DNA from: Bacillota bacterium
GTDB taxonomy: Bacteria; Bacillota; Sulfobacillia; DUSP01; JBFMCS01
Direction: 5' to 3'
Assembly: GCA_040754315.1 (NCBI GenBank)
Contig: JBFMCS010000051.1
Coordinates: 74,840 to 138,839, forward strand
DNA: 64,000 nt
The notes under the pieces: generated by a model
Seen by the model: the letters and a program-made list of their open reading frames with translations, nothing else
Database searches by the model: none
Told to the model about the DNA's origin: nothing
Translations under genes and position numbers: made by a program
Shown here: piece by piece, positions 32,783 to 62,578 of the stretch
Layout: each line of letters begins with the position of its first letter
Numbering within the stretch: the stretch's first letter is position 1

Positions 32783-33793
32783 ATGGAAGGGAGGGCCATG
32801 CGAGTGAACCATCTGAAAGGGAGCGACCTGTTGTCCACGAAGGGCCTGACGCTTGAGGACCTCCGATTCATATTCGGTACCACCACAGACCTTAAGATGG
32901 CCCAGAAACGCGGCGAGATCCAGGAGATCCTGAAGAACAAGGTGCTGGCCATGATCTTCGAGATCCCCTCGACCAGGACCAGCATATCCTTCGAGACAGC
33001 CATGACCAAGCTGGGGGGCCACGCCATCTACCTGGGTACGGACAGGTACTGGGCAGGCAAGGCCAAGGAAGAGAGCTGGCTGGATACCTGCGGCACCATT
33101 GACCGGTACGCCGATGCCCTTGCCGCCAGGGTCATGTCACATGACGACCTGGTTAAAGGGGCTGAGAAGATGCGGATCCCCGTCATCAATGCATCCAATG
33201 ACTATGAACACCCCTGCCAGGCGCTGACTGATTTCCAGACCGTCCTGGAGAAGCGGGGGCGCTTTGAAGGCCTGAAGTACGTCATTACCTGGGCCTGGCG
33301 CCACTCGAATCCCCCGATCGGTCTGGTGAACTCCAGCATGCACATAGCAGCCAAGCTGGGCATGGAATTCGTCATCGCGTGCCCCGAGGGTTACGAGCCT
33401 CTAGACCAGGAGCTGGAGGCGGCGAGGGCCGAGGCGTCCAAGTACGGCTCGGAGATAAATATCGTGCATGACATGAGGGGGGCGGCCAGGGGCGCCGATT
33501 TCCTGAACATCTACAGCTGGGTATCACCCGAGGTCTTCCGGAAGGGAATAGAGACCCACTTCGCCGCACCGGCCCCCCATAATGAGTTCCCCGAGAAGTA
33601 CCAGCACTGGAAGGTAACTCCCGACGTCGTGGACCTTCTTAATCCGGCGGGTCTGATCATGCACTGCATGCCTGCGGCCAGGGGCGAAGAGGTAGTCGAT
33701 GAGGTGCTCGACGGTTCGAGGTCCATCATCTTCGATGAAGCCGAAAACCGGCTCCACGTCCAGAAGGCACTGCTGGCGCTGCTCATGGGGTGA
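32783..33793 (+). CDS. ygeW: YgeW-like (knotted, oxamate-type) carbamoyltransferase
   Basis: Carbamoyl-phosphate binding motif STRTSISFE. HPCQALTD. The YgeW-type motif ITWAWRHSNPPIGLVNS aligns with the AMTWAYSPSYGKP motif I recall from E. coli YgeW, rather than with the OTC/ATC motif. Confidence 0.7.
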   Translation: MEGRAMRVNHLKGSDLLSTKGLTLEDLRFIFGTTTDLKMAQKRGEIQEILKNKVLAMIFEIPSTRTSISFETAMTKLGGHAIYLGTDRYWAGKAKEESWLDTCGTIDRYADALAARVMSHDDLVKGAEKMRIPVINASNDYEHPCQALTDFQTVLEKRGRFEGLKYVITWAWRHSNPPIGLVNSSMHIAAKLGMEFVIACPEGYEPLDQELEAARAEASKYGSEINIVHDMRGAARGADFLNIYSWVSPEVFRKGIETHFAAPAPHNEFPEKYQHWKVTPDVVDLLNPAGLIMHCMPAARGEEVVDEVLDGSRSIIFDEAENRLHVQKALLALLMG

Positions 33794-35148: not shown

Positions 35149-35163
35149 CTGGGAGGTGTCCAA

Positions 35164-37239: not shown

Positions 37240-39007
37240 AGGAGCGAAGGCTAGGTTCCAGGGAGCCGCGGATGCCATCACCATGTCCGTGGTATTCCAC
37301 CGCCTGCAGGCGATCAACAGGGAGATGGGGATCACCATGGTCAAGACATCGAGGTCCCCCATCTTCGCCGAGGTCCACGACTTCTCGTGCGCCATATGCG
37401 ATTGGGTGCCGCGGATCATCTCCCAGGTGGATGGCGTGCCTTCCCACACGGCGTCGTCCATGATGGCTGCCAAGGCCATATCCGACACCTTCAAGGGGGA
37501 CATCTCTCCAGGGGATGTGTTCGTCATCAATGACCCCTATAACGGCGGCACCCACCTGGCTGACGTCACGGTGATAAAGCCCATCTTCTATGAGGGTGAA
37601 CTGCTGTTCATGGGGGTCAACAGGGCGCACCACGCCGATGTGGGCGGCCTGTCCCCAGGCAGCTACAGCCCTCTTGCGACGGAGATCTTCCATGAGGGTA
37701 TCCGCATACCCCCGCTCAGGATCTACCGGAATGACAAGCCTATCAGCGATGTCCTGGAGATGGTCAGGATGAACACGCGCATGCCAGACCTCTTCCTCAG
37801 CGACATCAAGGCTCAGGTTGCCTCCTGCAGCGTCGCCGAGCGCCGGCTGGAGGAGATGGCAGCGAAATACGGTGTCCCGGCACTCAAGGAGATCCTTGAC
37901 GGGATACAGGAGTACGCCGAGATGAGGATGCGCCAGGAGATCGAGGCAATGCCGGACGGCGTCTACGAGGGTGAGACCTTCCTCGACGACGACGGTCACG
38001 GGCGCACGCAGGTAAGGGTGAAGGTCACCGTCACTATAGACGGGGACAGGATGTATGTGGACTTCGCGGGTACCGACCCGCAGACAGAGGGCTTCATCAA
38101 CAGCCCATTCGCCAACTCCTGTACCTCTGTCTACGTGTCTGTCCTGACCACCGCCAGGGGGGACGTGCCCCACAACGAAGGCGCCTACGCCCCCATAAGC
38201 ATCACGGCGCCGGAGGGCTGTCTTGTCAACCCCGTCCCGCCGGCCCCAGTCGCCAGCGCCACGCTGGACACGGCCTGCGCCATACTGGAGGCTATGTATA
38301 TAGCCTTGTCCAAGGCCCTGCCCGACAGGGCGCCCGCTGGCTGGAACCGGTGGTGCGGGCCGTCCATCGCGGGGATAGACCCCCGGAACGGCGAGTTCTA
38401 CGTGCAGTACGCGTTCTGCGGGATGGGCGGCGGAGGGGCGCTGCCCCACGCCGACGGCCTGAGCTATGTGGGCGATGGCATTGACCTCGGAGGGCTGACT
38501 GCCCCCAACATTGAGTCCAACGAGGTGGACTACCCGCAGATCACCGAGTACCACGAGTTCGAGACGGATTCAGGAGGGGCGGGCAAGTTCCGCGGAGGAT
38601 TGGGCGTTCGTTACAGGATCCGGTTCTACGATGAGAGCCCCTCCCTGATCATGTTCGGCGATGGCAAGGTAACCCCCCCATACGGCCTGTACGGGGGCCG
38701 GCCTGGCTCGACCAACAGGCCCATGGTGAACGAGGGCACCGGGAAAGAGGAGGATCTCCCCGCCAAGGGCATGAGCAGCCTGGCGAAGGGCGACACCTAC
38801 TCCATAAGGTCCTCGGGCGGCGGGGGCTGGGGGGACCCCCTGGAAAGGGATCCCGAGAGGGTTGCCTACGATGTCAAGTGCGGTTTCATCTTGCCCGAGT
38901 CGGCCCTGCGAGACTACGGAGTAGTTCTAGAGCCCGACGGCAGTGTGGATGAGTCCGGGACAGCCGAGCTGAGGACGAAGATGGCCGGAAGGGGGGTTAC
39001 GTCTTGA
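37232..39007 (+). CDS. hyuB: ATP-dependent hydantoinase/oxoprolinase family subunit B (HyuB-like)
   Basis: Hydantoinase_B-type sequence (FEGELLFMGVNRAHHADVGG, IDLGGLTAPN ... DSGGAGKFRGG). An 8-nt overlap with hyuA. Confidence 0.85.
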   Translation: MARGAKARFQGAADAITMSVVFHRLQAINREMGITMVKTSRSPIFAEVHDFSCAICDWVPRIISQVDGVPSHTASSMMAAKAISDTFKGDISPGDVFVINDPYNGGTHLADVTVIKPIFYEGELLFMGVNRAHHADVGGLSPGSYSPLATEIFHEGIRIPPLRIYRNDKPISDVLEMVRMNTRMPDLFLSDIKAQVASCSVAERRLEEMAAKYGVPALKEILDGIQEYAEMRMRQEIEAMPDGVYEGETFLDDDGHGRTQVRVKVTVTIDGDRMYVDFAGTDPQTEGFINSPFANSCTSVYVSVLTTARGDVPHNEGAYAPISITAPEGCLVNPVPPAPVASATLDTACAILEAMYIALSKALPDRAPAGWNRWCGPSIAGIDPRNGEFYVQYAFCGMGGGGALPHADGLSYVGDGIDLGGLTAPNIESNEVDYPQITEYHEFETDSGGAGKFRGGLGVRYRIRFYDESPSLIMFGDGKVTPPYGLYGGRPGSTNRPMVNEGTGKEEDLPAKGMSSLAKGDTYSIRSSGGGGWGDPLERDPERVAYDVKCGFILPESALRDYGVVLEPDGSVDESGTAELRTKMAGRGVTS

Positions 39008-40128
39008 AGGTAGCGGTTCTGGGATCCGGAAACGGGGGGTACGCGTGCTCCGCGGACCTTGCCCTAAGGGGTCACGAGGTGCGCTTGGCGGAGGCCCCCT
39101 CTCACGCTGAGCGCTTGAGGCCCCTTATCGACGATCCCTACATCGACGTCGTTAACATCGATGGCAGGCCGGTGGGCAGGGCTCACCTCTCGCTGGTTAC
39201 CTCCGATGCCGCCGAGGCGGTGACCGGGGCCGATGTGGTGTTAAACCCCGTGCCCATCTTCGCCTACAGGGTTTTTGCCCAGCTTGTGGCGAACACCATC
39301 GAGGAGGGACAGGTAGTCTGCACCCTGGGGAAAGGGGGCGGCTCTCTAGTCTACGCCAAGGCGCTCCGGGAGGCCGGCGCGGTCCTCCCCATCCTGGGAG
39401 AGACCAACACACTTCCCTACGGTGCCACTCGCCTTGGCCAGCACCAGGTCAGGATCGAATCCCCCACGGTCGAGCTCATAACAGCGGCCTTCCCTTCCCG
39501 GCGCACCGGGGAGGTGGTGGCCGCCTTCGGGGATCTCTACCCTGAGTACTCCATCCGGAAGGCCGCCAATGTCCTGGAGACCATCCTGGTGGACTACAAC
39601 GCCATCACGCACCCGCCTCCCATGATATGCAACGCTGCCAGGATAGCCTCCGGCTACGGGCAGGAGGACTTCCACCTGTTCGGGCCCTCGGAGAACCCCG
39701 AGGCTGTGGTAAGGGTAATCGAAGCGGTGGACAGGGAGAGGATTGCCCTCTCCAGGGCCCTGGGCATCAAGGCCTACACCCTTGAGGAGGAGATAAACCA
39801 CGTCGGTTTCAACCCCAGGGGCAAGGAGGGCAGGGTTCTGCCGCTGTTTGAGGCTATCCACACGGAGAAGCTGGAGGTCTGCGAGGGCCCCTATTCACTC
39901 ATGTCACGGCACCTGGTCGAGGACATCCCGTACGGGCTCGTCACCTTCTGTTCCCTCGGAGAGATGCTCGGGGTTCCGACCCCGGTCTCGAGGGCCCTGT
40001 CCGTGATGGCCTCGGTTCTAAATGGCGAGGACTACTTCCTGACCGGCAGGACGGTGGAGCGTCTCGGGATAGACCCGGCTTGGAGAATAGACCAGCTGTG
40101 CCGGTACCTGGAGGAGGGTCAGGCCTGA
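39004..40128 (+). CDS. NAD(P)-binding opine/octopine-dehydrogenase-family oxidoreductase
   Basis: N-terminal Rossmann motif KVAVLGSGNGGYA. The C-terminal half is like opine dehydrogenase family proteins. Confidence 0.5.
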   Translation: MKVAVLGSGNGGYACSADLALRGHEVRLAEAPSHAERLRPLIDDPYIDVVNIDGRPVGRAHLSLVTSDAAEAVTGADVVLNPVPIFAYRVFAQLVANTIEEGQVVCTLGKGGGSLVYAKALREAGAVLPILGETNTLPYGATRLGQHQVRIESPTVELITAAFPSRRTGEVVAAFGDLYPEYSIRKAANVLETILVDYNAITHPPPMICNAARIASGYGQEDFHLFGPSENPEAVVRVIEAVDRERIALSRALGIKAYTLEEEINHVGFNPRGKEGRVLPLFEAIHTEKLEVCEGPYSLMSRHLVEDIPYGLVTFCSLGEMLGVPTPVSRALSVMASVLNGEDYFLTGRTVERLGIDPAWRIDQLCRYLEEGQA

Positions 40129-40149
40129 GTTGCGGCCAGACCAGGGAAG

Positions 40150-40653
40150 GTGGGACGAACGGTGAAGGCCTTAGTCTCTTATCCGGATCTCTGCACTGGC
40201 TGCAGGCTCTGCGAGCTGGCGTGCGCCTTCCGGGTAGGGAAGACCATGCACCCGGCACGCTCGAGGATAACGGTGGTGAAGTGGGAGGATACCGGCTTCT
40301 ACCTTCCCTTCACCTGCCTGCAGTGTGAAAAGCCGGCATGTGCCTCGGCGTGTCCCGTTGAGGCCATAACGCGCCGAGAGGACACCGGTGCCATGGTGGT
40401 TGACGCCGAACGCTGCATAGGATGTGGGATGTGCCAGGTGTCATGCCCCTTTGGCGCTGCCTGTGTTGACCGGGGGACACGCGTGGCATCCAAGTGCGAC
40501 CTTTGCGACGGGTCGCCCAGGTGTGCTGAGATTTGCCCGGCCTCGGCCATCCGGTACCAGGATGAGCAGGAGGCGGCTGCGCACCGGCGACGGTCGCAAG
40601 TAGCCAGGGCGCTGTCCCATCCCGAGATCTTTCCGGGGGGTGAGGCGCGTTGA
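40150..40653 (+). CDS. Polyferredoxin (4x [4Fe-4S]), AorA-like electron-transfer subunit
   Basis: Four CxxCxxCxxxCP-type clusters. It lies immediately upstream of an AOR gene and overlaps it. Confidence 0.75.
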   Translation: MGRTVKALVSYPDLCTGCRLCELACAFRVGKTMHPARSRITVVKWEDTGFYLPFTCLQCEKPACASACPVEAITRREDTGAMVVDAERCIGCGMCQVSCPFGAACVDRGTRVASKCDLCDGSPRCAEICPASAIRYQDEQEAAAHRRRSQVARALSHPEIFPGGEAR

Positions 40654-42560
40654 AGTACCAAGGATACGCAGGCAAGGTGCTTAGGGTGGACCTGACGGAC
40701 CGCAAGGTGAGCGTCGAGGAGACCCCAGAGGAACTAGCCCGGGGCTTCCTGGGGGGTAACGGGTTCGGGGTGCGGGTGCTGTGGGACGAGACAGGGCCAG
40801 GGGTTGATGCCCTTGACCCGGGCAATCGCCTGGTATTCGCCTCTGGCCCTCTCTCTGGCACAACGTGGCCAGGAGCAGGGAGACTCGAGGTGATCGCCAA
40901 ATCACCGCTCACGGGCATCTACGGGGATTCCAACAGCGGGGGCTTCTTTGCCCCCGAGCTGAAGTACGCAGGGTTTGACATGGTGGTGATCACAGGGAGG
41001 GCCGAAGCGCCCGTCTTCCTGTCCATCACTCCGAGGGGGGTCGAGATCCGGGATGCCGGCCACCTCTGGAGTATGGGTGCCAGGAGCGCTGAAAAGGCAA
41101 TAGCGGCCCAGCTGGGGGACCCCGATGTGAAGACCTGCACGATAGGGCCTGCCGGCGAGAACCTCGTGCGCTTTGCCTCCATCCTGGTTTCCAGCGGGCG
41201 GTCAGCTGGGCGGTCGGGGATGGGTGCCGTCATGGGCTGCAAGAACCTCAAGGCCATCGCTGTCAGGGGTTTCGGCGGAGTTACCTTGGCTAGACCCGAC
41301 CTCTTCTATGATCTTAGCCTAAAGATGCACAAGGCCATTCGCGAGAACAAACTCTACGGCGTCGTGCACGAGTACGGCTCGCCGGGGTTGACCCCCCTGG
41401 TGAACATGACCGGGCGTTTCCCCACGAAGAACTTCCAGCTGGGTTCCTTCGAGCACCACGATAAGATCGGCGGCGAGGCGCTGAAGGCCCACTTCGTAAA
41501 GCACCTGGCGTGTTTCTCCTGCGGAGTCGGCTGCGACAAGATGTTCCACGTAAGGAGCGGCCCGTTCGCGGGGACCCGGTCAACGAGCCTGGAGTACGAG
41601 GTCCTCGGGGCGCTGGGCGCCGGGGTCCTGGTGGATGACCTGGACGCGGTTGTGAAGGCCAACAGCCTCTGTGACGAGCTCGGCATGGACGTGATCTCCG
41701 CTGGAAGGACCATCTCGTTTCTCATGGAGATCTTCGACAGGGGCATAGTGAGCCCCTCTGATATCGACGGGCTAGAGCCCCGGTGGGGGGATGCCCGCCT
41801 GGTGCTGGACCTACTCCAGCGGATCGCTGCCAGGCAAGGCATCGGCGATCTCCTGGCGGAAGGGGTACGCAGGATGGCCCAGAGGATCGGCCGGGGCTCC
41901 GAGGGGTACGCCATGGAGGTCAAGGGACAGGAGATTGCCTGCCAGGACGGCAGGGCCCAGCAGTCGATGGGGCTTGCGCACGTCACGTCTGCCAGGGGTG
42001 CCGACCACCTGAAAGCGTACCCCACCATCGATGAGACCGGGTTCCCGTCCAAGGCCATAGGGCGTTACGGGGAGCAGTACATGCCCGACCTCATCGATCC
42101 CCACTCCTCCCGGCACAAGGCAATGGTGGTGAAGGACGGGGAGGACTACGCCGCGGTCGTTGATTCGGCGGGCCACTGCAAGATCGGAGGGGCCTTCGTC
42201 ATTGCCGAGATATACTGGCCCGAAGAGGCCATGGGACTAGCGTACGCCACCGGCATGGAGGTGGACGAGGCGTCCTTGAGGGCTACCGGGGAGCGCATCT
42301 ACAATCTCATGCGCCTCTACAACGTCCGGCTTGGTATCAGCAGGGCCGATGACCGCCTGCCCAGGCGCTTCACAGAGGAACCGGCCCAGTCGGGCACCGC
42401 CACGGGCAGGGTCGTCGACCTTGACGCGATGCTAAAGGAGTACTACCGACTCAGGGGATGGGATCCCGAAAGGGGCCTTCCCGAGAGGGATACGCTCAGA
42501 AGGCTGGGCTTGGACTTCGCCATGGAGTGCCTGGAGAGGGAGGGCGTCTTGCTTGCCTGA
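40650..42560 (+). CDS. Tungsten-type aldehyde:ferredoxin oxidoreductase (AOR family), AorB-like
   Basis: 636 aa. N-terminal GKVLRVDLTDRKV. AOR cluster-binding region HLACFSCGVGCDK. Overall AOR length. Confidence 0.85.
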   Translation: MKYQGYAGKVLRVDLTDRKVSVEETPEELARGFLGGNGFGVRVLWDETGPGVDALDPGNRLVFASGPLSGTTWPGAGRLEVIAKSPLTGIYGDSNSGGFFAPELKYAGFDMVVITGRAEAPVFLSITPRGVEIRDAGHLWSMGARSAEKAIAAQLGDPDVKTCTIGPAGENLVRFASILVSSGRSAGRSGMGAVMGCKNLKAIAVRGFGGVTLARPDLFYDLSLKMHKAIRENKLYGVVHEYGSPGLTPLVNMTGRFPTKNFQLGSFEHHDKIGGEALKAHFVKHLACFSCGVGCDKMFHVRSGPFAGTRSTSLEYEVLGALGAGVLVDDLDAVVKANSLCDELGMDVISAGRTISFLMEIFDRGIVSPSDIDGLEPRWGDARLVLDLLQRIAARQGIGDLLAEGVRRMAQRIGRGSEGYAMEVKGQEIACQDGRAQQSMGLAHVTSARGADHLKAYPTIDETGFPSKAIGRYGEQYMPDLIDPHSSRHKAMVVKDGEDYAAVVDSAGHCKIGGAFVIAEIYWPEEAMGLAYATGMEVDEASLRATGERIYNLMRLYNVRLGISRADDRLPRRFTEEPAQSGTATGRVVDLDAMLKEYYRLRGWDPERGLPERDTLRRLGLDFAMECLEREGVLLA

Positions 42561-42843
42561 TCTGATCAGGGTTAAGGTCAAAGGCTATAACCTCATCTGG
42601 TCTGCCCTGGGCGGCCACGACGCGGAGGTCACCCTGGCCGCTCCGGCCACCTTCGCGGACCTCCTGGACCACCTGGTCAGAGAGAGGGGGGCCCTGGCCC
42701 AGGTTGTGCTGGACGGGCGGGAAGGCATCAGGCCGAACCTCAGGGTCTTCCTGAACGGCCGCCCTTTACCCAACGTATCGGGTCCGGAACAGTTGAATGA
42801 CGGCGATGAAGTCATCATGCTCATGGCGGCCGCGGGCGGCTGA
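42553..42843 (+). CDS. MoaD/ThiS-like ubiquitin-fold protein ending in Gly-Gly
   Basis: 96 aa with a C-terminal ... MAAAGG. The position after AOR parallels bacterial aor operons that carry MoaD-like maturation factors. Confidence 0.5.
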   Translation: MPDLIRVKVKGYNLIWSALGGHDAEVTLAAPATFADLLDHLVRERGALAQVVLDGREGIRPNLRVFLNGRPLPNVSGPEQLNDGDEVIMLMAAAGG

Positions 42844-42866
42844 CACATGAGCGGGGAGGCGTAGGA

Positions 42867-44048
42867 ATGGACCTCAGCGTTGATATAGGAGGCCTCAGGC
42901 TGAAGAACCCGCTGATCGTCGCGGCAGGTGCGCACGGCCGGGACAGTCGGACCATGGCTCACGTGGCGTCCTTCGGGCCGGGAGCCGTCACAACCAAGAC
43001 GATTGTGTCCCAGCCAGCCAAGGATGTCCTACCCTGCTTTGCACGGGTGCCCGGGGGGTTCCTCAATTGCGTTTTCGGTTCCACCACAGGGCCCGACCAG
43101 TGGTTTGGCGTGGACATACCCGAAGCCAAGCGAGCGGGAGTCACCGTTATCGCCAACCTGGCGGGGGTAACGGCGGAGGAAACGGCGGACCTGGCCGAGA
43201 GAGCCGCCCTGGCGGGGGCCGACATCATCGAGATCCCGACGATCTGCTGTCACATGAAGGAGATCCTTGAGGCCATGTTCCCCGGGCTGGTCATCGACCT
43301 CCCGGCGATAGAGGACCCCAGTCCCTACGTGGGGATACTGCGGACTGTCAAGGAGCGCACGGGGCTCCCCCTCATAGCCAAGCTGAGCGCCATCTTCCTG
43401 AACAACACGGTGGACTGGGCGAAGGCCGCGAAGGAGGGAGGGGCGGACGCGGTGGCCTGCTCCGACGCCCTCGGCCCTGCCCTGGCTGTTGACGTCCAGA
43501 CGGGTGAGCCCCTCCTGGGCGGGCCCAGGGGTGTCGGCGGGCTCACAGGGGGCGCCCTGAAGCCCATATCCCTGCGCATGTGCCTGGAGGTCGCCATGAA
43601 CGTGGACATAGATGTCATCGGGGTGGGCGGGGTTTCCTCCGCACAGGATGCCCTGGAGTACTTCATGGTCGGGGCCAAGGCGGTCGGGGCATGCACCAGC
43701 GGGCACCTGAGAGGTCCGAGAGCCTATTCAGAGATCCTCAAGGGCCTCGAGGAGAGCCTCGAGGCCAGGGAGGCTTCCCTGGAGGACGTCAGGGGCCTGA
43801 CCACAAAAAGGCTGGAAGCTCGAAAGGCCCTGGGTACCCACGTCATGACGGAGCCCCGAATCCCCCAGGTCATAGAGGAACGCTGTAACGCCTGTGGGAG
43901 GTGCAAGGATTCCTGCATATACCAGGCCATCCACATTGACGGCATCATGGTCATCAATAACGAGGCGTGTTACGGGTGCGGTCTTTGCCGCCAGGCCTGT
44001 CCGCGCATGGCAATACTCCACGACTGCTTCGGGGGAGGCCCTTCGTGA
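42867..44048 (+). CDS. Dihydroorotate/dihydropyrimidine-dehydrogenase-family (PreA-like) flavoprotein with a C-terminal 2x[4Fe-4S] ferredoxin domain
   Basis: Class-1 DHOD N-terminus LKNPLIVAAG. FMN-barrel motifs. C-terminal CNACGRCKDSC ... CYGCGLCRQACP. Confidence 0.7.
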   Translation: MDLSVDIGGLRLKNPLIVAAGAHGRDSRTMAHVASFGPGAVTTKTIVSQPAKDVLPCFARVPGGFLNCVFGSTTGPDQWFGVDIPEAKRAGVTVIANLAGVTAEETADLAERAALAGADIIEIPTICCHMKEILEAMFPGLVIDLPAIEDPSPYVGILRTVKERTGLPLIAKLSAIFLNNTVDWAKAAKEGGADAVACSDALGPALAVDVQTGEPLLGGPRGVGGLTGGALKPISLRMCLEVAMNVDIDVIGVGGVSSAQDALEYFMVGAKAVGACTSGHLRGPRAYSEILKGLEESLEAREASLEDVRGLTTKRLEARKALGTHVMTEPRIPQVIEERCNACGRCKDSCIYQAIHIDGIMVINNEACYGCGLCRQACPRMAILHDCFGGGPS

Positions 44049-53504: not shown

Positions 53505-54338
53505 GTGGTGTCGGTGGAGGATACGAGACCCAGGGGACACCGTGTCCAATCGGTAGACAGGGCGCTCATGTTGATGGAGGCCCTAGCCTCTGAAGGCAGG
53601 CCCATGGGCCTGGTGGAGCTGGCGCAGGCGGTCGGGCTCGAGACCACCACGGTGCACCGTTTGCTTCACACCCTGATAGAACGGGGATTTGTTAGACAAG
53701 ACAGCGAGAGGGGCAAGTACGAGCTGGGTTTGAAGGCGTTTCACGTGGGTAACGCGGTCACCTACATCGCACAGCTGAGGAAGATCCTCAGGCCGTACCT
53801 GGAGAGGCTCGTCCAGGACACGGGGGAGACATCCAACCTCGCTGTCTCGGATGGCTGGGATGGCATCTACATCGAGCAGATACCAGGCTCTCAGTTCCTG
53901 AGGATGTCCACCGAGGTGGGCCGGCGGGTGCCACTTCACTCAACGGCTGTAGGCAAGGCGCTCATGGCCTGGCTTCCCCAGGAGGAGATCGAGGCATTCA
54001 TCAAAAGCAACGGCCTGCGCAGGCTGACGCCCAACACCATCGTGGAGCCCGCCGTTTTCAAGGCGGAGCTGGAGAGGGTAAGGGCCCAGGGCTATACCCT
54101 GGACCTGGAGGAGTTCGAGCTGGGGGCTAACTGCATCGGGGCTCCGGTCTTTGGCAAGCGCGGCTCCGTTGTGGCGGCGGTGAGCGTATCCGGTCCCACG
54201 GTCCGGTTCAGGTCCGAGGACATGGAGCGGTTCAAGGTTTATGTGTGCCGGTGCGCCTCGGCCATCTCCAAGGAGATGGGCTATGCCTTCGAGTTGCCCA
54301 GGCTGTCTTCCAAGGGGTGGGAGATGGTGAGGCCCTAG
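53505..54338 (+). CDS. IclR-family transcriptional regulator
   Basis: An N-terminal wHTH (VQSVDRALMLMEALA ... LVELAQAVGLETTTVHRLL) plus a C-terminal IclR effector domain. Confidence 0.85.
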   Translation: MVSVEDTRPRGHRVQSVDRALMLMEALASEGRPMGLVELAQAVGLETTTVHRLLHTLIERGFVRQDSERGKYELGLKAFHVGNAVTYIAQLRKILRPYLERLVQDTGETSNLAVSDGWDGIYIEQIPGSQFLRMSTEVGRRVPLHSTAVGKALMAWLPQEEIEAFIKSNGLRRLTPNTIVEPAVFKAELERVRAQGYTLDLEEFELGANCIGAPVFGKRGSVVAAVSVSGPTVRFRSEDMERFKVYVCRCASAISKEMGYAFELPRLSSKGWEMVRP

Positions 54339-54552
54339 CGGAGGGACGCGGCAAGGTTTTCTCGAGGCTCTTGCCAAGGAGCACAGAGAAAACGGCCCTG
54401 GATCCCGGGGCATGCCGGGCTATTAGGATGGAGCGGGAACAATCGGCGGCAGTGTCAATGGGGGTGGCGATCCCGGGACTGCCGTCACTCGAGTGGCGGC
54501 ACGGGGCCATGGCCCCGGCATCCCCAAAGTCGCCCTTTCAGGGGGGAGAAGA

Positions 54553-55869
54553 GTGTCAGAAGTCAGGGTGGTGCACTACGTGAACCAGTTCTTTGGCGGC
54601 ATCGGGGGAGAGGAGAAGGGAAACCATCCGGTCACGACCAGACAAGGGCCGGTAGGACCAGGCTTGGCCCTCCAGAAAGCCCTTGGAGACGACGCCATGA
54701 TCGTCGGGACAGTGATTGCGGGAGACAACTACTTCAGCGAGAACCTCGAGGGTACATGCCGGGAGGCGCTGGAGGCCGTCAAGGGGTTCGGGCCGGACGT
54801 GCTGGTGGCGGGCCCTGCCTTTGGCGCCGGGCGTTACGGAGTGGCCTGCGGGGCGCTGTGCGAGGCAGCTACCGGGGAGGGCATCCGCTCCGTGACCGCC
54901 ATGGCCGAGGATAACCCAGCCGTTGGCATCTACCAGAAGACCGTCTTCATAGTCCCGAGCGGGGATTCGGCCGCTGGGATGGGCAAGGTCATGCCAAAGA
55001 TTGCCCGGCTCGCCCTGAAACTGGTCCGGGAAGGTAGCCTGGGGCCAGCCTTGGCTGAGGGGTACATACCCACGGGTCACCGCTACAACGAGTACGATGA
55101 CAAGACAGCGGCCGAACGCCTGGTGGCAATGATCCACAAGAAGCTGCGGGGCGAGGCCTTCACAACGGAGATACCGCTGCGGGGCTTCGATGTAGTGCCC
55201 CCGGCGCCGCCCTTGGAGGATCTCAGGTCTTTAACGGTAGCCCTGGTAACCGGCGGCGGCATCGTGCCCAAGGGTAATCCGGACAGGCTAAAGCAGGCCT
55301 TCTCAACAACTTACGCCTCCTATCGTCTTGACTGCCAGGAGCGCCTGGAGCCCGGTTACTATGAGGGGATCCACGGCGGGTTCGACTGCCTGTGGGCGAA
55401 CGAGGACCCCAACAGGGTGGTTCCCGTGGACGTCATGCGCGACCTGGAAAGGGAGGGCGTCCTCGGGAGGCTCTTCGAGAGGTTCTTCGTTACCGTTGGT
55501 ATCGGCACCAACGTGGCCAATGCCAAGCGAATAGGGGAGGGCATAGCACAGGAGCTGAATAGCGCAGGGGTGAGCGCAGCAATCTTCACATCCACGTGAG
55601 GGACGTGCACTCGTTGCGTGGCAACGATGACCAAAGAGGCGGAACGTGCTGGCATTCCCTCAGCCCTGATAACGGCGATACCCTCGGTTGCGCTCTCGGT
55701 GGGTGCCAGCAGGGTGGTCGTGGGAGGCGGGATCCCGCATCCCACGGGTAACCCGGAGCTTCCGCCCGACAGGGAGAGGGCCTTTCGAAGAAGATGCGTG
55801 GAAATGGCCTTGAAGGCCATCCAGTCACCGGCGTCAGGTCCAACTGAGTTCAAGGTGGAACTGGGCTAG
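54553..55869 (+). CDS. grdB: Glycine/sarcosine/betaine-reductase selenoprotein B family (GrdB/GrdF/GrdH-type), with in-frame UGA (Sec) at 55597-55599
   Basis: VVHYVNQFFGGIGGEEK ... ALVTGGGIVPKGNPDR ... then AIFTST-TGA-GTCTRC. This matches the conserved selenoprotein B TSTUGTC active site. Translation resumes in frame in ORF 55618-55869. SD GGGGGGAGAAGAG precedes the GTG start. Confidence 0.8.
55611..55627 (+). other. SECIS-like stem-loop 12 nt downstream of the grdB UGA
   Basis: TCGTTGC-GTG-GCAACGA, a 7-bp stem with a 3-nt loop, read directly. The distance from the UGA matches bacterial SECIS placement. Confidence 0.4.
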
Positions 55870-55876
55870 GGAGGGG

Positions 55877-57178
55877 ATGCCGTTGCTTCTTGAACGCTAT
55901 GTATTCGACGTGAAGGACTTGAGGTTTGACAAACCCACTCGCCTGGAGAATGGCACGCTCTACATTGACGGGGCTGGGCTGAAAGAGACCTTATCGTCCA
56001 TCCCAGGCCTTTCACAGATCGACCTGCACTTGGTCAAGCCCGGTGAGGCATCGAGGATCATCCACGTTCTCGATACGATCATGCCCATGGCCAAGGATGA
56101 CGGCCGTCAGGCCTACCCGGGTAATCTTGGGCCGCCGGACCTGGTGGGCAACGGGATAACCAGGGTCATGCCATCGGTGGCGGTGATGGAGTGCGCGGCC
56201 CTGCCCTGGACGGCCACGGGGCTTCTGTACGCCAGGGAGGCCATGGTTGACATGACTGGCCCTTACGCAGGGTTAAGCCCGTTTTCCGAAACCCTTAACC
56301 TAGTGCTGGAGATGGAGCTGGAGGCGGGCAAGTCGGATCCTGAGTACGACCACGCCGTGAGAACGGCGGGCCTGAAGGCGGCTGCCTACGTGGCCCAGGC
56401 CATGGCTGGACAGGAGCCCGACAGGGTGGAGCGATACGATACAACGCAAGGCCGGGCAGATGGCCTTCCCTCCATCGCCTATGTCTACCAGGTGCAGAAC
56501 CAGGGTCCCTACTCCAACACGCTCCTTTATGGCAAGACCGTGGATAACCTGGTGCCCACAGTGCTCGATCCCAACGAGTTGCTGGATGGCGCGCTGGTGA
56601 GCGGCAACTACGTGTGGCCTTGCTTTAAGGTTCCCACCTACCTTCATGCGATGTCCCCGGTTGTGCTAGAACTGTACAAGGGCCACGGCAGGGACCACAA
56701 TTTCGCCGGGGTGGTCTTCAGCAGGGGTCACAACTACTCGCACTTCGACAAGACGCGGTCGGCGAACATCGCGGCCAAGCTGGTACGCCACCTGGGCGCG
56801 CAGGCCATGGTCATTACCTGGGAGGGCGGCGGCAATGCCGCCACCGACGCCATGCTGACCATTCAGGCCTGCGAGAAGATGGGCATAAGGTCGGCGGCCA
56901 TAAGCTTCGAGTTTGGCGGACCTGACGGTACCGAGGGTATCCTCCTGGTGGATGATGTGCCCGAGGCCGATGCCCTCGTTTCGTCGGGCAGCATCGAAAA
57001 ACCGATTGAACTGCCTAGGGTCGAGAGGGCGGTGGGGGGTCCCTTCCTGAGGCTCAACCGGGAAATGGGCGGTGAGGAGCGAGAGCCTACGGCGGCCATC
57101 TCCTTTGATAACACCACATTGATGTACTGTGCGGCGAACCAGACGGGCTTTGGCTGGTTGATCGGCCGTGCGTACTAG
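55877..57178 (+). CDS. grdE: Grd protein B proprotein (GrdE/GrdG-like, pyruvoyl-forming)
   Basis: 433 aa. GrdE-like N-terminus (LLERYVFDVKDLRF). The size and family match GrdE/PrdA-type proproteins. SD GGGAGGGG before the ATG. Confidence 0.7.
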   Translation: MPLLLERYVFDVKDLRFDKPTRLENGTLYIDGAGLKETLSSIPGLSQIDLHLVKPGEASRIIHVLDTIMPMAKDDGRQAYPGNLGPPDLVGNGITRVMPSVAVMECAALPWTATGLLYAREAMVDMTGPYAGLSPFSETLNLVLEMELEAGKSDPEYDHAVRTAGLKAAAYVAQAMAGQEPDRVERYDTTQGRADGLPSIAYVYQVQNQGPYSNTLLYGKTVDNLVPTVLDPNELLDGALVSGNYVWPCFKVPTYLHAMSPVVLELYKGHGRDHNFAGVVFSRGHNYSHFDKTRSANIAAKLVRHLGAQAMVITWEGGGNAATDAMLTIQACEKMGIRSAAISFEFGGPDGTEGILLVDDVPEADALVSSGSIEKPIELPRVERAVGGPFLRLNREMGGEEREPTAAISFDNTTLMYCAANQTGFGWLIGRAY

Positions 57179-57218
57179 GATCGCAGAAGATAGACTTGGA
57201 GGGAGCGCTGTAGGGACG

Positions 57219-58676
57219 ATGGTCAAACCGGTGGTAAAGGGAGTATCATATGTGCTCGCCCACGGGCCTGGCTTGGTACGGTATGGATCAAAGCCGGCCA
57301 GGGAGTGCCAGAAGGACTCTGGCCTCCTGGGGAGGATCGAAGCCTCGCTCAGGAGCTACGATGAGGTCATCGGTTATCCCCCAAACCAAGTCTTCATCGG
57401 CAATGCTCGACCCGAAGACCTGTGGCGAATTGAAAGACCCTGGTGGAAGCATCTTGTGCCCAATGCTCCGCGTCGCGGGCGGTGGGGGGAGATCATACCC
57501 GAGGATGAGCTGTACTGCCTCATAAAGGCCGTGGACGATTTCGACCTGGTGAAGCTGGACGAGGGCTTCTTGGCCGGTGGTGCGAGAGAACGATACCTGG
57601 CAAGCCCGGTGTGCCGGGAAGGAGATGCCGGAAGGCTCGGGGGTGAATCTGCCCAAGGGGTTGAAAGGGGCCTTGCCGAGGGCCACGCGCTTGCCCTGCG
57701 TCACCGCGGGGATGTCGTGGGCCGGGTTTCCCGGGGCCATGACGAGGATGAGACCCTCCAAGCGGCGGTGCTCCTTGAGAACCTCGCCTGCAAGGCTACG
57801 GGCGTTGCGGCCCTGAGGCACCTCCTGGCCCAGGACGGGATGCCGGAGCCATCCCGGGTCGGATACGTCATGAACAGCGGTGAAGAGGCGGTGGGCGACC
57901 GCTACCAGCGGGGAGGGGGTAACCTGGCCAAGGCGATGGCAGAACGTTCCGGCCTCCTGGAGGCAACCGGGTCAGACATCAAGGCCTTCTGCTGTTCACC
58001 AGTACACGCTGTTGTCATGGCTTCGAGCCTGGTAAGTTCCGGCCTGTTCGAAAACGTAATGGTCGTCGGCGGAGGGTCGCTGGCGAAGATGGGGATGAAG
58101 TTCAGGGGCCACCTGGCCAGCGGCTACCCCATAATGGAGGATGTGCTCGGGGCGTTCGCGTTGATGGTGAGCGCCGATGACGGCGTAAATCCTGTTGTGA
58201 GGCTGGATGGTGTGGGGAGGCACAAGGTGAAATCCGGTTCCTCGCCCCAGCAGATCCTCGAGGCGCTGGTCGTGGAACCGCTCGAACGCTTGGGACTAAG
58301 GATGACCGACGTGCCGAAGTACGCCCTGGAGCTGCACAACCCCGAGGTCACCGAACCCGCGGGGAGCGGTGATGTTCCCAGGAACAACTACAGGGCCCTG
58401 GCAGGCATGGCAGTGATACGCCGGGAGACGGACAGATCCGGGATGGACAGGTTCGAGGCCTCCCACGGGATGCCTGGGTTCTCGCCGACCCAGGGTCATG
58501 TTCCGGCGTCGCTTCCCTTCATGGGCCACGCGCGAGATCGCATCCTGTCAGGGGAACTGGAGAGGGCCATGTTTATAGCCAAGGGGAGCCTCTTTCTGGG
58601 GAAGATGACGGGGCTTTCGGACGGCATGTCCTTCCTGGTGGAAAGGAATGGTGATGAGCGTGAAGGAGGTCGATAG
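57219..58676 (+). CDS. grdC: Grd protein C beta subunit (GrdC, thiolase/KAS-III-like)
   Basis: MVKPVVKGVSYVLAHGPGLVRYGSKP ... YPPNQVFIGN and the overall 485 aa length fit GrdC. Confidence 0.65.
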   Translation: MVKPVVKGVSYVLAHGPGLVRYGSKPARECQKDSGLLGRIEASLRSYDEVIGYPPNQVFIGNARPEDLWRIERPWWKHLVPNAPRRGRWGEIIPEDELYCLIKAVDDFDLVKLDEGFLAGGARERYLASPVCREGDAGRLGGESAQGVERGLAEGHALALRHRGDVVGRVSRGHDEDETLQAAVLLENLACKATGVAALRHLLAQDGMPEPSRVGYVMNSGEEAVGDRYQRGGGNLAKAMAERSGLLEATGSDIKAFCCSPVHAVVMASSLVSSGLFENVMVVGGGSLAKMGMKFRGHLASGYPIMEDVLGAFALMVSADDGVNPVVRLDGVGRHKVKSGSSPQQILEALVVEPLERLGLRMTDVPKYALELHNPEVTEPAGSGDVPRNNYRALAGMAVIRRETDRSGMDRFEASHGMPGFSPTQGHVPASLPFMGHARDRILSGELERAMFIAKGSLFLGKMTGLSDGMSFLVERNGDEREGGR

Positions 58677-58965
58677 GGAGGGTTTCGTCCAGGAGACCGC
58701 AGAGGGGACGGTGGTAGTGGACTTCTGGGGCCCTAGATGCGCCCCGTGCCTGGCCTTGATGCCAGTGGTAGAGGAGTTGGCTAGCCAGCTGGAGGGTAAG
58801 GTCAGGTTCCTAAAGGTTGACTCGTCCAAGAACCGGAGGCTGTGCGTGGATCTTGGGGTCATGAGCCTTCCCACATTCCTCGCCTACAGGGACGGGCAGG
58901 AGGTTGAGAGGCTTACAGGGCATGTAGATGCCAGGTCCTTGAGGGAAATGGTTCAACGTCTCTAG
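58648..58965 (+). CDS. trxA: Thioredoxin
   Basis: WGPRCAPC active site in a thioredoxin fold. Its start overlaps the grdC stop. Confidence 0.8.
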   Translation: MVMSVKEVDREGFVQETAEGTVVVDFWGPRCAPCLALMPVVEELASQLEGKVRFLKVDSSKNRRLCVDLGVMSLPTFLAYRDGQEVERLTGHVDARSLREMVQRL

Positions 58966-58977
58966 GAGGTGACGGCA

Positions 58978-59448
58978 ATGGTGCTCGGAGGAAAGAAGAT
59001 CATCTGCATTGGAGAGCGAGACGGCGTGCCGGCGCCAGCTATGGCTGAGTGTGTCGCCAGTGCTGGTGCCCAGGTAGTCCTGGCTTTAACCCAGTGTTTT
59101 GTGTGAACGGCCGCAGGAGCCATGGACCTGGAGGATCAGGGGACCATCAAGCGAGTCGCCGAGGAACACGCCGGGGATAACCTGGTGGTGATACTCGGAT
59201 CCCCCACTAGTGAGGCCGCGGAGATATACGCGGAGACGGTAACTGTGGGAGACCCCACCTACGCGGGTCCATTGGCCGGAGTCTCGTTGAGACTCCCCGT
59301 ATATCATATCCTGGAGCCGGAGATAAAGGCTGAGATCGACCCGGATACCTACGACAAGCAGGTAGGCATGATGGAACTGGTGCTGGATACCGAAGGGATC
59401 ACTAAGGCGATGAAGATGGCGAGGGAGAGGCATCTTGGCCAGGCCTAA
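58978..59448 (+). CDS. grdA: Grd selenoprotein A (GrdA), with in-frame UGA (Sec) at 59104-59106
   Basis: From ATG 58978: [56 protein letters not shown] ... This matches the GrdA [13 protein letters not shown] site. The C-terminal part equals ORF 59122-59448. SD AGGAGGTGA. Confidence 0.85.
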
Positions 59449-59899
59449 CAGCACGCTATCCTCCCAGGGTATCGCTTCCGGCCCGAGGCCGGGGGCCGTC
59501 CTGGCTGCCCTCCACGACCTTCAGGAGCGCCACGGCTACCTTCCTGAGGACGGGCTGCGAGCGGCGGCGAAGGGCCTGGGGGTGCCGCTAGGCCAGGTGT
59601 TCTCCGTGGCTGCCTTCTATGATGGCTTCCGCCTGGAACCCAGGGGACGATGCCTCGTCGAGGTCTGCCAAGGAACGGCATGCCATGTGCGGGGGGCGGA
59701 CGGGGTAGCCAGGGCCTTTCAGGATGAGACGGGCGCCCCTGTGGGGGGTTCAAGCGAGGATATGGCCTACTCCGTGGAGAACGTTCGGTGCATAGGCTGC
59801 TGCAGCCTGGCTCCTGTCGCCAGGATCGACGGCCAGGTGTTCGCTAGGCTTACGCCCAAGAAGGCCCGTAGCCTGGTAAGGAGGGAGGCGCCCCAGTGA
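59435..59899 (+). CDS. NuoE/HndA-like [2Fe-2S] thioredoxin-fold subunit (24 kDa-type)
   Basis: HGYLPEDGLRAAAKGLGVPLGQVFSVAAFYDGF ... CQGTACHVRGA ... CIGCCSLAP is the NuoE cluster motif. Confidence 0.75.
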   Translation: MARPNSTLSSQGIASGPRPGAVLAALHDLQERHGYLPEDGLRAAAKGLGVPLGQVFSVAAFYDGFRLEPRGRCLVEVCQGTACHVRGADGVARAFQDETGAPVGGSSEDMAYSVENVRCIGCCSLAPVARIDGQVFARLTPKKARSLVRREAPQ

Positions 59900-61752
59900 C
59901 CTGGGATCTTGCAGAGCTCCGGGAGGAGGGGCTCAGGAGCCTGTATCCTGGCATCCCCAGGATCGGTGTTGGCACGTCCACGTGTGGAAGGGCTGCCGGG
60001 GCGGGTGATGTGTACCAGGCGCTGGTGGAGGCGGGCCAAGACAGGGTCCAGGTCAAGGAGGTGGGCTGCGCCGGTTACTGCCAGGTAGAGCCTGTGGTGA
60101 CCGTGCACGTGCCGGGAAGGGCCAGGGTGGTCTTTCACACAGTTTGTCCCTCGATGGCTCCGGCCATGGTATCCTGGGCGCTGGGATCATCTGGCCCCCT
60201 AGACCCTGTCGCCGAGATGGAGTCGGATGGTCTGGCGCCAGGCGCCGAGCGCAGGCTGGGTCGGGGATGGGGGCTTTCGCCCCTGCGTGACCTGGACTTC
60301 TATCGCGGGCAGAACAGGCTTGTCATGAGGAACTGCGGGATTATAGACCCCTCAAGCCTGCCCGAGTACGTTGCTGTGGGCGGGTTTGCCTCCCTGGTTA
60401 TGGCGCTGGGACGGCCTCCCGAGGAGATCCTGGAGGAAATCACTGCGTCCGGCCTTAGGGGGAGGGGAGGCGCAGGTTTTCCCACGGGATATAAGTGGCA
60501 GGCGACGAGGTCGGTGCCCAGCGAGGACAGGTACGTGATATGCAATGCCGATGAGGGTGATCCAGGCGCCTACATGGACAGGGGGCTCCTTGAGTCAGAT
60601 CCCTTCGCGGTACTGGAGGGGCTCATCATCGCCGCCTACGTGGTGGGCGCCCATACGACGATCATCTATGTTAGGGCTGAATACCCATTGGCAGTAGCCA
60701 GGCTAGAGTCGGCCATCGAATCGGCCCGGATGGCAGGGCTTACCGGTCCATCCATCCTCGGAACGGGCTTTGGCGTTGATATAATACTGGTAAAGGGAGC
60801 GGGCGCCTACGTTTGCGGGGAGGAGACGGCGCTCATAGCCTCGGTGGAGGGAAGGCCTGGGGAGCCCAGGCCCAGACCACCCTTCCCCGCCCAGAAGGGG
60901 CTTTGGGGCAGGCCCACCGTGATCAACAACGTTGAGACACTCGCCAACGTCCCGGCGGTGCTGGCGATGGGGAAGGACAGGTTCCGTTCCTTTGGTACCG
61001 AGGCATCCCCCGGGACTAAGGTGTTCAGCCTTGTGGGTGATGTTCGAAACGCGGGGCTGGTGGAGGTGGAGATGGGTACGCCGCTTGAGGCCTTAATGGC
61101 AATGGGTGGGGTCGACGCCTCCAGTGTCAAGGCGGTGCAGACAGGCGGGCCGTCAGGCGGTGTGATCCCCGGTTCCATGCTGGATCTGCCGGTTGACTAC
61201 GAGGCCCTCGCCAGGGCGGGGAGCATCATGGGCTCCGGCGGCCTGGTTGTGATGGGACACACCGCATGCATGGTGGATGTGGCTCGGTACTTCCTGGGCT
61301 TCGCGGCACAGGAAGCCTGCGGCAAGTGCACTCCCTGCAGGGAAGGGATGGCCAGGATGAGGGGGGTCCTCGACAGACTCGTGGAAGGGAGTGGGCGACC
61401 AGGTGACCTGGAGACCCTGGAGGAATGGGCGCTGGCCGTGAAGGATGCGTCCCTGTGCGGCCTTGGGCAGAACACCCCGAACCCTGTGTTGACTACCCTG
61501 AGGCACTTCGCTGGCGAATATGAGGCACACCTGGAGGGCCACTGCCTCGCAGGCGTGTGCCGGGCGCTGATCAGATACCACATTGACACGGCTCGTTGTC
61601 TAGCCTGCGGGGTGTGCCAGGACGAGTGCGCCGCGGGTGCCGTTTTAGGCGAAGAGGAGCGGCTGATAGACCCGGACCGCTGCATCCGTTGCGGGTCGTG
61701 CAAAGAGGTATGCCCGGCGGAGGCGATCAGCATTGGCAATGGACATCGATGA
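59896..61752 (+). CDS. NuoF/HndC-like NAD(P)H-binding FMN flavoprotein with C-terminal 2x[4Fe-4S] ferredoxin domain
   Basis: LRGRGGAGFPTGYKW is the NADH/FMN site. The 51-kDa 4Fe-4S region CGKCTPCREG. C-terminal CLACGVCQDEC ... CIRCGSCKEVCP. Confidence 0.85.
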   Translation: MTWDLAELREEGLRSLYPGIPRIGVGTSTCGRAAGAGDVYQALVEAGQDRVQVKEVGCAGYCQVEPVVTVHVPGRARVVFHTVCPSMAPAMVSWALGSSGPLDPVAEMESDGLAPGAERRLGRGWGLSPLRDLDFYRGQNRLVMRNCGIIDPSSLPEYVAVGGFASLVMALGRPPEEILEEITASGLRGRGGAGFPTGYKWQATRSVPSEDRYVICNADEGDPGAYMDRGLLESDPFAVLEGLIIAAYVVGAHTTIIYVRAEYPLAVARLESAIESARMAGLTGPSILGTGFGVDIILVKGAGAYVCGEETALIASVEGRPGEPRPRPPFPAQKGLWGRPTVINNVETLANVPAVLAMGKDRFRSFGTEASPGTKVFSLVGDVRNAGLVEVEMGTPLEALMAMGGVDASSVKAVQTGGPSGGVIPGSMLDLPVDYEALARAGSIMGSGGLVVMGHTACMVDVARYFLGFAAQEACGKCTPCREGMARMRGVLDRLVEGSGRPGDLETLEEWALAVKDASLCGLGQNTPNPVLTTLRHFAGEYEAHLEGHCLAGVCRALIRYHIDTARCLACGVCQDECAAGAVLGEEERLIDPDRCIRCGSCKEVCPAEAISIGNGHR

Positions 61753-62578
61753 CCGCGAGGTCCCCTGGGAAGAAGGACAGACTGTGCTCGAGGCCGCAAG
61801 GCGGGGAGGCATAGAGATACCCACCCTCTGCCACCACCCGGGCCTTGAGCCCTATGGCGCGTGCAGGGTTTGCCTGGTAGAGATCGTGGACGGCGGGCGG
61901 AAGGGCCTCTCTGCTTCCTGTTGCCTAGCGGCTGCCGACGGCCTCCGGGTGGTGACATCCTCCGACAGGGTGCTGAGGGCCCGCCGCGTGGTGGTGGGGT
62001 TCCTGCTGGACAGGCTACCCCCCTCAAGCCCCCTGCGGTCGCTGGCCCCTTCCCTGAGGGTGAGCCCTGCTCCAGACGAGACAGGCCAGGATGATTGCGT
62101 AGCCTGCGGGCGTTGCATGAGGGCGTGCGCTGCCGTGGGCAGGCATGCCATCTCCTTTGCCTGGCGCGGCACCCGGAGGCGGCCTGTGACCCCCTTCGAG
62201 GCCTCCTCGCCAGACTGCGTGGGATGCACCGCCTGTGCCCAGGTCTGTCCCACCGGAGCCATAAGGGCTGAGGCTGGCAATGATTCGATGCTTCTTGATC
62301 GGTGGAAGACCAGGGTTCCCCTGGTGTTGTGCCAGGCCTGCGGTCAAGCCGCAGGTCCGGAGCCACTCTTGGCTCGGGCCGGGGACCTTCACCAGCAGGT
62401 CTACTTGTGCGCGGCATGCCGCCGGCGCCATGCCGTGCGCTTTGGCAGCGGTTGGCCCGTCCGGCGGGCAGCCGGTCCATCATGGCCGGGGGCGACTCCC
62501 TGTCTCCCCTCTTCTGCCCCGGGGCACAGGCCGGTAGCCATCGTTGCGCACCTGCGGGGGTGTTCAGGTGAGAGTTGA
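61733..62578 (+). CDS. NuoG/HndD N-terminal-like [2Fe-2S]+[4Fe-4S] ferredoxin protein lacking a catalytic (hydrogenase/FDH) domain
   Basis: 2Fe-2S motif LCHHPGLEPYGACRVCLVEI. His/Cys and CxxCxxC clusters (CVACGRCMRAC, CVGCTACAQVCP). It ends after about 280 aa. Confidence 0.65.
   Translation: MAMDIDDREVPWEEGQTVLEAARRGGIEIPTLCHHPGLEPYGACRVCLVEIVDGGRKGLSASCCLAAADGLRVVTSSDRVLRARRVVVGFLLDRLPPSSPLRSLAPSLRVSPAPDETGQDDCVACGRCMRACAAVGRHAISFAWRGTRRRPVTPFEASSPDCVGCTACAQVCPTGAIRAEAGNDSMLLDRWKTRVPLVLCQACGQAAGPEPLLARAGDLHQQVYLCAACRRRHAVRFGSGWPVRRAAGPSWPGATPCLPSSAPGHRPVAIVAHLRGCSGES

Follow-up and report, generated by a model that had tools for sequence, protein, structure and literature searches.

A glycine-reductase-family gene cluster from a Bacillota bacterium with two UGA codons predicted to encode selenocysteine

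Two genes on contig JBFMCS010000051.1 of a Bacillota bacterium (assembly GCA_040754315.1) raise the question of whether their in-frame UGA codons are true stops or encode selenocysteine (Sec) and, in the latter case, what kind of reductase they would serve. The DNA analysed here, referred to as the window, is a stretch of 64,000 nt of this contig (positions 74,840 to 138,839 of the forward strand), and all window coordinates are counted from its first letter. An earlier interpretation made from the letters alone, the sequence-only reading, had proposed that a grdB-type gene and grdA, both belonging to the selenoproteins of the glycine reductase family, are each split by a TGA in the list of open reading frames (ORFs). 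Our analysis gives a probability of about 0.9 to the reading that positions 54553-59448 hold an operon-like glycine-reductase-family cluster in which two genes need UGA to be read as Sec.

The two in-frame UGA codons

The ORF list of the window contains two relevant pairs on the plus strand, 54493..55599 with 55618..55869 and 58969..59106 with 59122..59448, and each pair is joined by reading through one TGA (55597-55599 and 59104-59106, respectively). When 54493-55869 was translated in one frame, TGA 55597-55599 was the lone internal stop, in the context AAIFTST*GTCTRCVATM; likewise, TGA 59104-59106 was the only internal stop of 58969-59448. The likely start of the first gene is GTG 54553, which has the purine-rich ribosome-binding sequence GGGGGGAGAAGA just before it, and that of grdA is ATG 58978, just after the purine-rich ribosome-binding sequence GGAGGTG. 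Read from these starts, the products would be selenoprotein B, the Sec subunit of component B (54553..55869, plus strand, 438 amino acids (aa)), with the UGA at residue 349 in the motif U349-xx-C352-xx-C355 (TST-U-GT-C-TR-C), and GrdA, or selenoprotein A (58978..59448, plus strand, 156 aa), with the UGA at residue 43 in the motif C40-F-V-U43. Judged by these motifs, U-xx-C-xx-C in selenoprotein B and C-xx-U in GrdA, both UGA codons stand at the catalytic Sec positions.

Both read-through proteins matched their families across the UGA. Selenoprotein B scored 480 bits against TIGR01918 (cut-off 65; residues 5-426) and 440 bits against Pfam GRDB (PF07355), while GrdA scored 226 bits against NF040748 (cut-off 130; model positions 1-149 of 151) and 220 bits against Pfam GRDA (PF04723). 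The two joins of the sequence-only reading, one restoring TST-U-GTCTRC through TGA 55597-55599 and the other running from ATG 58978 through TGA 59104-59106 into ORF 59122-59448, were thus confirmed by single-frame translation together with end-to-end family matches in both cases.

Such joins are common in this DNA. A mechanical screen found about 100 ORF pairs connected by a single TGA in the window, whose GC content is 62%, so that a join of this kind alone proves nothing. None of the other pairs looked like a selenoprotein by its flanking peptides, although they were not individually scanned against family models. What lifts both sites above chance is homology, namely the family matches across the UGA and the TGA column in every homolog examined. 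Conservation was assessed in 83 related loci from public genomes and assemblies. The Sec column of selenoprotein B was TGA in all 77 homologous genes of these loci, and that of grdA was TGA in 49 of 49. Identity of selenoprotein B to its nearest relatives was 78% after the UGA versus 62% before it, and the GrdA segments before and after the UGA were 54-64% identical to their counterparts, the segment after the UGA being as conserved as, or more conserved than, the one before. Among database entries, Bathyarchaeota homologs of selenoprotein B carry Cys at the Sec site, and many others carry Trp. Cys forms of GrdA and GrdB have been described as almost absent among homologs (PMC1794560). The expectation that the read-through proteins would align with selenoproteins A and B, with Sec or Cys at the UGA, is therefore borne out: the aligned site is TGA in the homologs or, for selenoprotein B of Bathyarchaeota, Cys.

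The Trp found at this site in many database homologs could be taken to mean that UGA is reassigned throughout the genome, to Trp or Gly for instance, with no specificity for Sec. We consider the likelihood of this close to nil. Twenty-five of the 42 well-supported genes of the window end in TGA and match Pfam domain models up to that stop; TGA is an ordinary stop here, and so the code is standard and the recoding local and site-specific. The Trp entries go back to gene callers working with a code that assigns TGA to Trp. Examples are the public 'full-length' selenoprotein B entries P0003, P0005, P0006, P0007 and P0014, which read TSTWGTCTRC because TGA was translated under such a code. The warning that standard gene callers would truncate both genes also proved justified, since the nearest database homologs are either fragments (350 + 80 aa for selenoprotein B, 41-44 + 106 aa for GrdA) or proteins bearing Trp.

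In a separate, post-hoc observation on stop codons, nine consecutive genes at 48959-59448, of which an amino-acid permease is the first and grdA the last, have TAG or TAA as their stop, whereas 25 of the 33 others end in TGA. Horizontal transfer was considered as a cause of this run and found to be unsupported: the GC content and the GC content of third codon positions are homogeneous, and there is no obvious island.

Hairpins downstream of the UGA codons

The sequence-only reading had placed a perfect 7-bp hairpin 12 nt after the UGA of the grdB-type gene, where a bacterial selenocysteine insertion sequence (SECIS) would be expected. The hairpin TCGTTGC-GTG-GCAACGA is present at 55611-55627; it begins at the twelfth nucleotide after the UGA, with 11 nt between, and its stem pairs 55611-55617 with 55621-55627 around the loop GUG (55618-55620). 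A perfect 7-bp hairpin occurs in the correct interval at 2.3% of positions. In a permissive Rfam scan (5.2-kb search) the plus-strand segment 55600..55637 gave a full-length match to the SECIS_4 family, RF01990 (33.6 bits, E 6.5e-5), so the check for a SECIS in this region came out positive, though below the family's gathering score. The window element shares with SECIS_4 the 6-bp stem CGUUGC/GCAACG and differs from it in its loop, GUG (a Val codon) against GGU in the model, and in lacking the outer 2-bp helix. The loop GUG in this hairpin is common only to the window and the related loci L001-L003. For comparison, the canonical grdB of Paraclostridium (L079) scored 66 bits against SECIS_4, and the nearest relative, L001, scored 45 bits.

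A perfect hairpin within a coding sequence might be a by-product of a conserved peptide, here T-R-C-V/G-A-T, with no function at the level of RNA. The hairpin does lie wholly within the codons of an invariant active-site peptide, and the folding energies of 64-nt stretches around it, obtained by single-sequence folding, are ordinary (z-scores -0.7 to +0.9). The pattern of conservation, however, makes a by-product very unlikely. In an ungapped alignment of 68 distinct homologs the core GUUGC/GCAAC (5 bp) pairs in every sequence, and the synonymous positions of the hairpin are frozen, the Ala codon being GCA in 68 of 68 and the Cys position TGC in 67 of 68. Five of the sequences, from Blastocatellia/Acidobacteria, Sporomusaceae and Synergistales genomes, have exchanged a U-A for a C-G pair, with CGU/CGC covarying with ACG/GCG, and this exchange couples a synonymous change in Arg with a change from Thr to Ala. 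The coupled exchanges and the invariant third position of Ala imply a constraint on the RNA, not on the peptide alone, and the hairpin belongs to a curated Rfam family of cis-regulatory elements. From its pairing and family match we take the hairpin at 55611-55627 to be the described grdB SECIS (RF01990).

For grdA, a candidate hairpin CCUGG-AGGA-UCAGG lies at 59127..59140 (plus strand). Folded locally it forms only four pairs (CCUG/CAGG) with a 6-nt loop (-5.2 kcal/mol); the fifth pair, a G-U, and the AGGA loop belong to a structure that was imposed on the aligned sequences. In that alignment, 72.6% of the cells of the helix (59127-59131 with 59136-59140) can pair, and covariation is weak. 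RNAalifold yielded no consensus grdA SECIS across taxa, an exhaustive scan of grdA for 4-bp helices found no hairpin that more than 40% of the sequences could form, and Rfam gave no match to the grdA region. The element at 59127-59140 is accordingly kept as a weakly supported SECIS candidate.

From what is established about Sec insertion in bacteria, SelB loaded with Sec-tRNA(Sec) would bind the hairpin while the ribosome stands at the UGA, and Sec would be inserted; insertion at both sites would give the full-length proteins of 438 and 156 aa. Several results weigh against this reading and have to be set beside it. Neither selA, selB, selD nor tRNA-Sec was found in the 64-kb window: ARAGORN and Rfam detected only a tRNA-Pro, as did the Rfam scan at gathering score, and Pfam scans of 52 window ORFs contained no Sec-pathway domain. 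The SECIS_4 score of the window element falls short of the gathering score of 38 by 4.4 bits, because of the GUG loop and because the outer two pairs of the model are not formed. Downstream of the grdA UGA there is no convincing conserved SECIS. Among the genes expected to accompany the two selenoproteins, GrdD, a component C subunit in characterised enzymes, had no tblastn match in the window, and no Pyr_redox_2 protein that could serve as thioredoxin reductase was present among the scanned window ORFs. The GrdD and TrxB genes may lie elsewhere in the genome.

The absence of Sec machinery from the window, together with the origin of the DNA in a metagenome-assembled genome, would also fit pseudogenes in which both TGAs are nonsense mutations or assembly errors. 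This explanation is highly improbable: TGA occurs at exactly these columns in every homolog, the downstream segments are free of other stops and match the upstream ones in conservation, and the SECIS is conserved. Two Sec codons and a SECIS, all of them conserved, strongly suggest that this organism uses Sec.

Recoding of this kind is textbook knowledge. Two in-frame TGA codons are described for the grdAB operon of Clostridium litorale (Kreimer and Andreesen 1995, as cited in PMC13188914), and SECIS_4 is an established Rfam family. The window resembles the glycine reductase genes grdA and grdB in having two Sec codons per cluster, with C-xx-U in GrdA and U-xx-C-xx-C in component B, and in having GrdC and thioredoxin genes as neighbours. 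What is less ordinary is the substrate-binding half of the predicted enzyme, which by its sequence would belong to an uncharacterised, non-pyruvoyl branch of the family.

The component B subunits

Directly after the selenoprotein B gene lies that of the second component B subunit, an alpha/beta-type protein of the GrdE/GrdG/GrdI family (55877..57178, plus strand, 433 aa; Pfam Gly_reductase, 391 bits), here called the large subunit. Its sequence agrees at 100% identity with NCBI MEW6082332.1, a protein of a metagenome-assembled genome named 'Bacillota bacterium'. Among species-representative genomes it has no relative above 53% identity, and in the databases it belongs to a clade of more than 100 proteins that are 50-66% identical to it. 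A sequence-based search for relatives of known structure found none for all three proteins.

The description of the Sec subunit as grdB-type holds at the level of the family (TIGR01918) and fails for the individual members GrdB, GrdF and GrdH. Selenoprotein B stayed below the equivalog or exception cut-offs of all three models: 462 versus 602 bits for GrdB (TIGR01917), 487 versus 800 for GrdF (NF040794) and 414 versus 775 for GrdH (NF040795). Its partner subunit, moreover, lacks the pyruvoyl-forming Cys. The FarE model (NF053623) scored 141, its cut-off of 675 not being reached, and the large subunit scored 259 bits against the GrdG model (NF040793; cut-off 780). With this GrdG model the clade of the window scored 259-275, canonical GrdE 647 and the putative GrdI class 362.

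In the alignment, the large subunit of the window reads SGN-Y-VWPC and a canonical GrdE SGN-C-VSAC, so that Tyr replaces the pyruvoyl-forming Cys. It is this Cys, at the Asn-Cys site of GrdE, that is turned into the pyruvoyl group (Bednarski et al. 2001, as cited in PMC10838667). A survey of this motif in 81 homologs from the related loci found the canonical Cys motif in 59 and a second class with ISGSFMPCSSK, which is probably GrdI. The large subunit of the window groups with forms having Tyr or Ser at the site (SGNYVWPA, SGNSVWPL, SGN[YS]AYQS), and SGN-Y/S-VWP was present in all 11 clade proteins whose sequences were read as well as in the three closest loci. In two Acidobacteria (L011 at 11045 and L032 at 3775), the selenoprotein B paired with a Tyr/Ser large subunit has the variant active site FTSN-U-ATCSRC.

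The replacement of the pyruvoyl-forming Cys by Tyr means that the substrate probably needs no Schiff base. It is very likely, judging from these motifs and scores, that the enzyme would need no Schiff-base carbonyl. In this it would resemble betaine reductase and the proposed fluoroacetate reductase, while belonging to neither family. With GrdH/GrdI and FarB/FarE (PMC10838667) the window shares a large subunit that has no pyruvoyl-giving Cys, and this subunit is presumably not a self-cleaving proprotein. The window nevertheless scores far under the cut-offs of these systems (GrdH 414 versus 775, FarE 141 versus 675). At the cleavage site the putative GrdI class has ISGSFMPCSSK where the window has SGNYVWPC, and, in a further difference from FarB, selenoprotein B of the window keeps a C-xx-C after the Sec.

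A classical glycine reductase, with GrdB and a GrdE proprotein that would bind glycine through a pyruvoyl Schiff base, has to be weighed against this, since the window proteins are of the same family and have the same Sec motif and the same type of SECIS as glycine reductase, and some clade members are labelled 'glycine reductase' by JGI. We regard it as unlikely. The GrdB equivalog cut-off is missed, the large subunit reads SGN-Y-VWPC where the 59 canonical GrdE have SGN-C-VSAC, its score against the GrdG model is less than half that of canonical GrdE and also below that of the putative GrdI class, and the cluster, unlike the canonical locus L079, has no glycine riboswitch. Sarcosine reductase was also tried as an identity, as GrdF and GrdG are the best NCBIfam matches and creatinine-type genes lie nearby, and was rejected because the cut-offs and the pyruvoyl site fail.

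Cluster neighbours and a possible pathway

The cluster runs in the order IclR regulator, selenoprotein B, large subunit, GrdC, thioredoxin, GrdA, NuoE/NuoF/Fe-S genes and EamA-type transporter, with all mapped genes on the plus strand. The IclR-family transcription regulator (53505..54338; Pfam HTH_IclR and IclR_C) is directly upstream, and L003 has an IclR gene 52% identical to it close to its own, related selenoprotein B gene. GrdC, the beta subunit of component C (57168..58676, likely start ATG 57219), matched NF040746 over model positions 1-476 of 477 (617 bits, cut-off 450). The gene at 58648..58965 encodes a thioredoxin of 105 aa with the active site CAPC, found by Pfam Thioredoxin and NCBIfam TrxA-type models. 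With regard to regulation, Rfam detected a glycine riboswitch (48.6 bits) at 5858-5979 of L079, preceding the canonical grd locus of Paraclostridium bifermentans; none was detected by Rfam at the window cluster, which has the IclR regulator instead.

By analogy with the Grd mechanism that Andreesen has reviewed (summarised in PMC13188914; see also PMC10838667), the Sec of component B would attack the alpha-carbon of a substrate X-CH2-COOH and release X, and the carboxymethyl group would then move to the Sec of GrdA. GrdC would take the group as an acetyl thioester, from which it would leave as acetyl phosphate, and thioredoxin would re-reduce GrdA.

The arrangement of these genes departs from that of glycine reductase, whose known order is grdX-E-A-B-C-D; the window has B, large subunit, grdC, trx and grdA, its component B is not of the glycine type, and grdD, trxB and grdX are lacking from the window. 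In relatives the order is B, large subunit, a TrxB-like gene, thioredoxin and GrdA in either order, and a fused GrdCD, while the window has GrdC alone. The arrangement grdC-trx-grdA without grdD recurs in loci of Acidobacteria and Thermodesulfobacteriota (L011, L019, L032, L034), and it is in loci of these two groups that the GrdC proteins most similar to that of the window are found.

Pfam scans of the block after grdA identified a NuoE-like gene (59435-59899), a NuoF-like gene (59896-61752) and a gene for a 2Fe-2S/4Fe-4S protein (61733-62578), the domains matched in the block being 2Fe-2S_thioredx, Complex1_51K, NADH_4Fe-4S, Fer2_4 and Fer4. These three genes (59435..62578) overlap end to end and start within the end of grdA. 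Their sequences point to a possible electron-input module. None of the 84 loci examined had NuoE/F-like genes beside grd genes. At its C-terminus the Fe-S protein carries an unusual tail, about 80 aa long and rich in Pro, Ala and Arg, that has no domain match. On the minus strand, an ORF of 525 aa (61197-62774) overlaps the NuoF-like and Fe-S genes, both of which are supported by Pfam; this ORF is probably a high-GC artefact.

Further upstream, Pfam identified a module of plus-strand genes at 32783..44048 for a carbamoyltransferase-like protein, an amidohydrolase, hydantoinases A and B (HyuA and HyuB), an octopine-dehydrogenase-like protein, a ferredoxin, an aldehyde:ferredoxin oxidoreductase and a dihydroorotate-dehydrogenase-like protein with 4Fe-4S domains. 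This module is probably linked to the grd cluster. In L087, a distant member of the clade, the grd cluster contains or adjoins orthologs of module genes (612-6614 and 19492-21311; 49-62% identity). Those for HyuA, HyuB, the octopine-dehydrogenase-like and the carbamoyltransferase-like protein immediately precede the B genes, while those for the amidohydrolase and the dihydroorotate-dehydrogenase-like Fe-S protein are further downstream. The contig that carries P0124 likewise has the HyuA, HyuB, octopine-dehydrogenase-like and carbamoyltransferase-like genes directly upstream of its B genes, and the clade members of L087 and of this contig are both at 55% identity. The window orthologs of these four genes are at 32783-40128 (49-62% identity). 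Other clade members sit among genes for DeoC aldolase, Zn-dependent alcohol dehydrogenase, aldehyde dehydrogenase, EamA and sugar transport.

The segment 40150-53474, which separates the hydantoinase module from the grd cluster, carries a set of genes typical of amino-acid fermentation. It contains two aldehyde:ferredoxin oxidoreductase genes (40650-42560 and 51582-53474), a polyferredoxin, an indolepyruvate/pyruvate:ferredoxin oxidoreductase-like pair, a split ADP-forming acyl-CoA synthetase and an iron alcohol dehydrogenase.

There is a precedent for combining ring opening with a Grd reductase in Clostridium sp. FS41, which degrades N-methylhydantoin with sarcosine reductase (PMC4417704). 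The window is similar to this case in that Grd-type component B genes occur in a hydantoin-ring-opening organism and in that subunits A and C are encoded apart from B, or fused in relatives. It differs in that the GrdF and GrdG cut-offs are unmet (487 versus 800 and 259 versus 780), the window protein has no pyruvoyl Cys, and the link to a substrate in the window is one of gene neighbourhood only.

The neighbourhood shared by the module and the component B genes suggests one pathway. We tentatively propose, while holding it at somewhat less than an even chance, that component B (54553-57178) represents an uncharacterised substrate class and would act as the terminal ATP-yielding reductase of an undescribed anaerobic hydantoin-like or N-carboxymethyl pathway; in this organism it would operate with neither GrdD nor TrxB encoded close by, and its operon would include a flavoprotein module of the NuoE/F type. 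The marks of the proposed class would be a Sec-containing selenoprotein B, an SGN-Y/S-VWP large subunit unable to form a pyruvoyl group, a greater distance from GrdE/GrdG than that of the putative GrdI class, and coinheritance with ATP-dependent hydantoinase A/B, opine-dehydrogenase-like and carbamoyltransferase-like enzymes, as seen in the window and two other organisms.

Both genes should be annotated at full length, as selenoproteins; their relatives in public protein sets are fragmented or have Trp at the Sec site, by which the active site is hidden. The main value of the analysis lies in this correction and in drawing attention to an uncharacterised component B branch of the non-pyruvoyl type whose gene neighbourhood is conserved. 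The linkage to hydantoinase, opine-dehydrogenase-like and carbamoyltransferase-like genes suggests that this branch may carry out a further energy-conserving reduction of the Stickland type, one that is biochemically undescribed.

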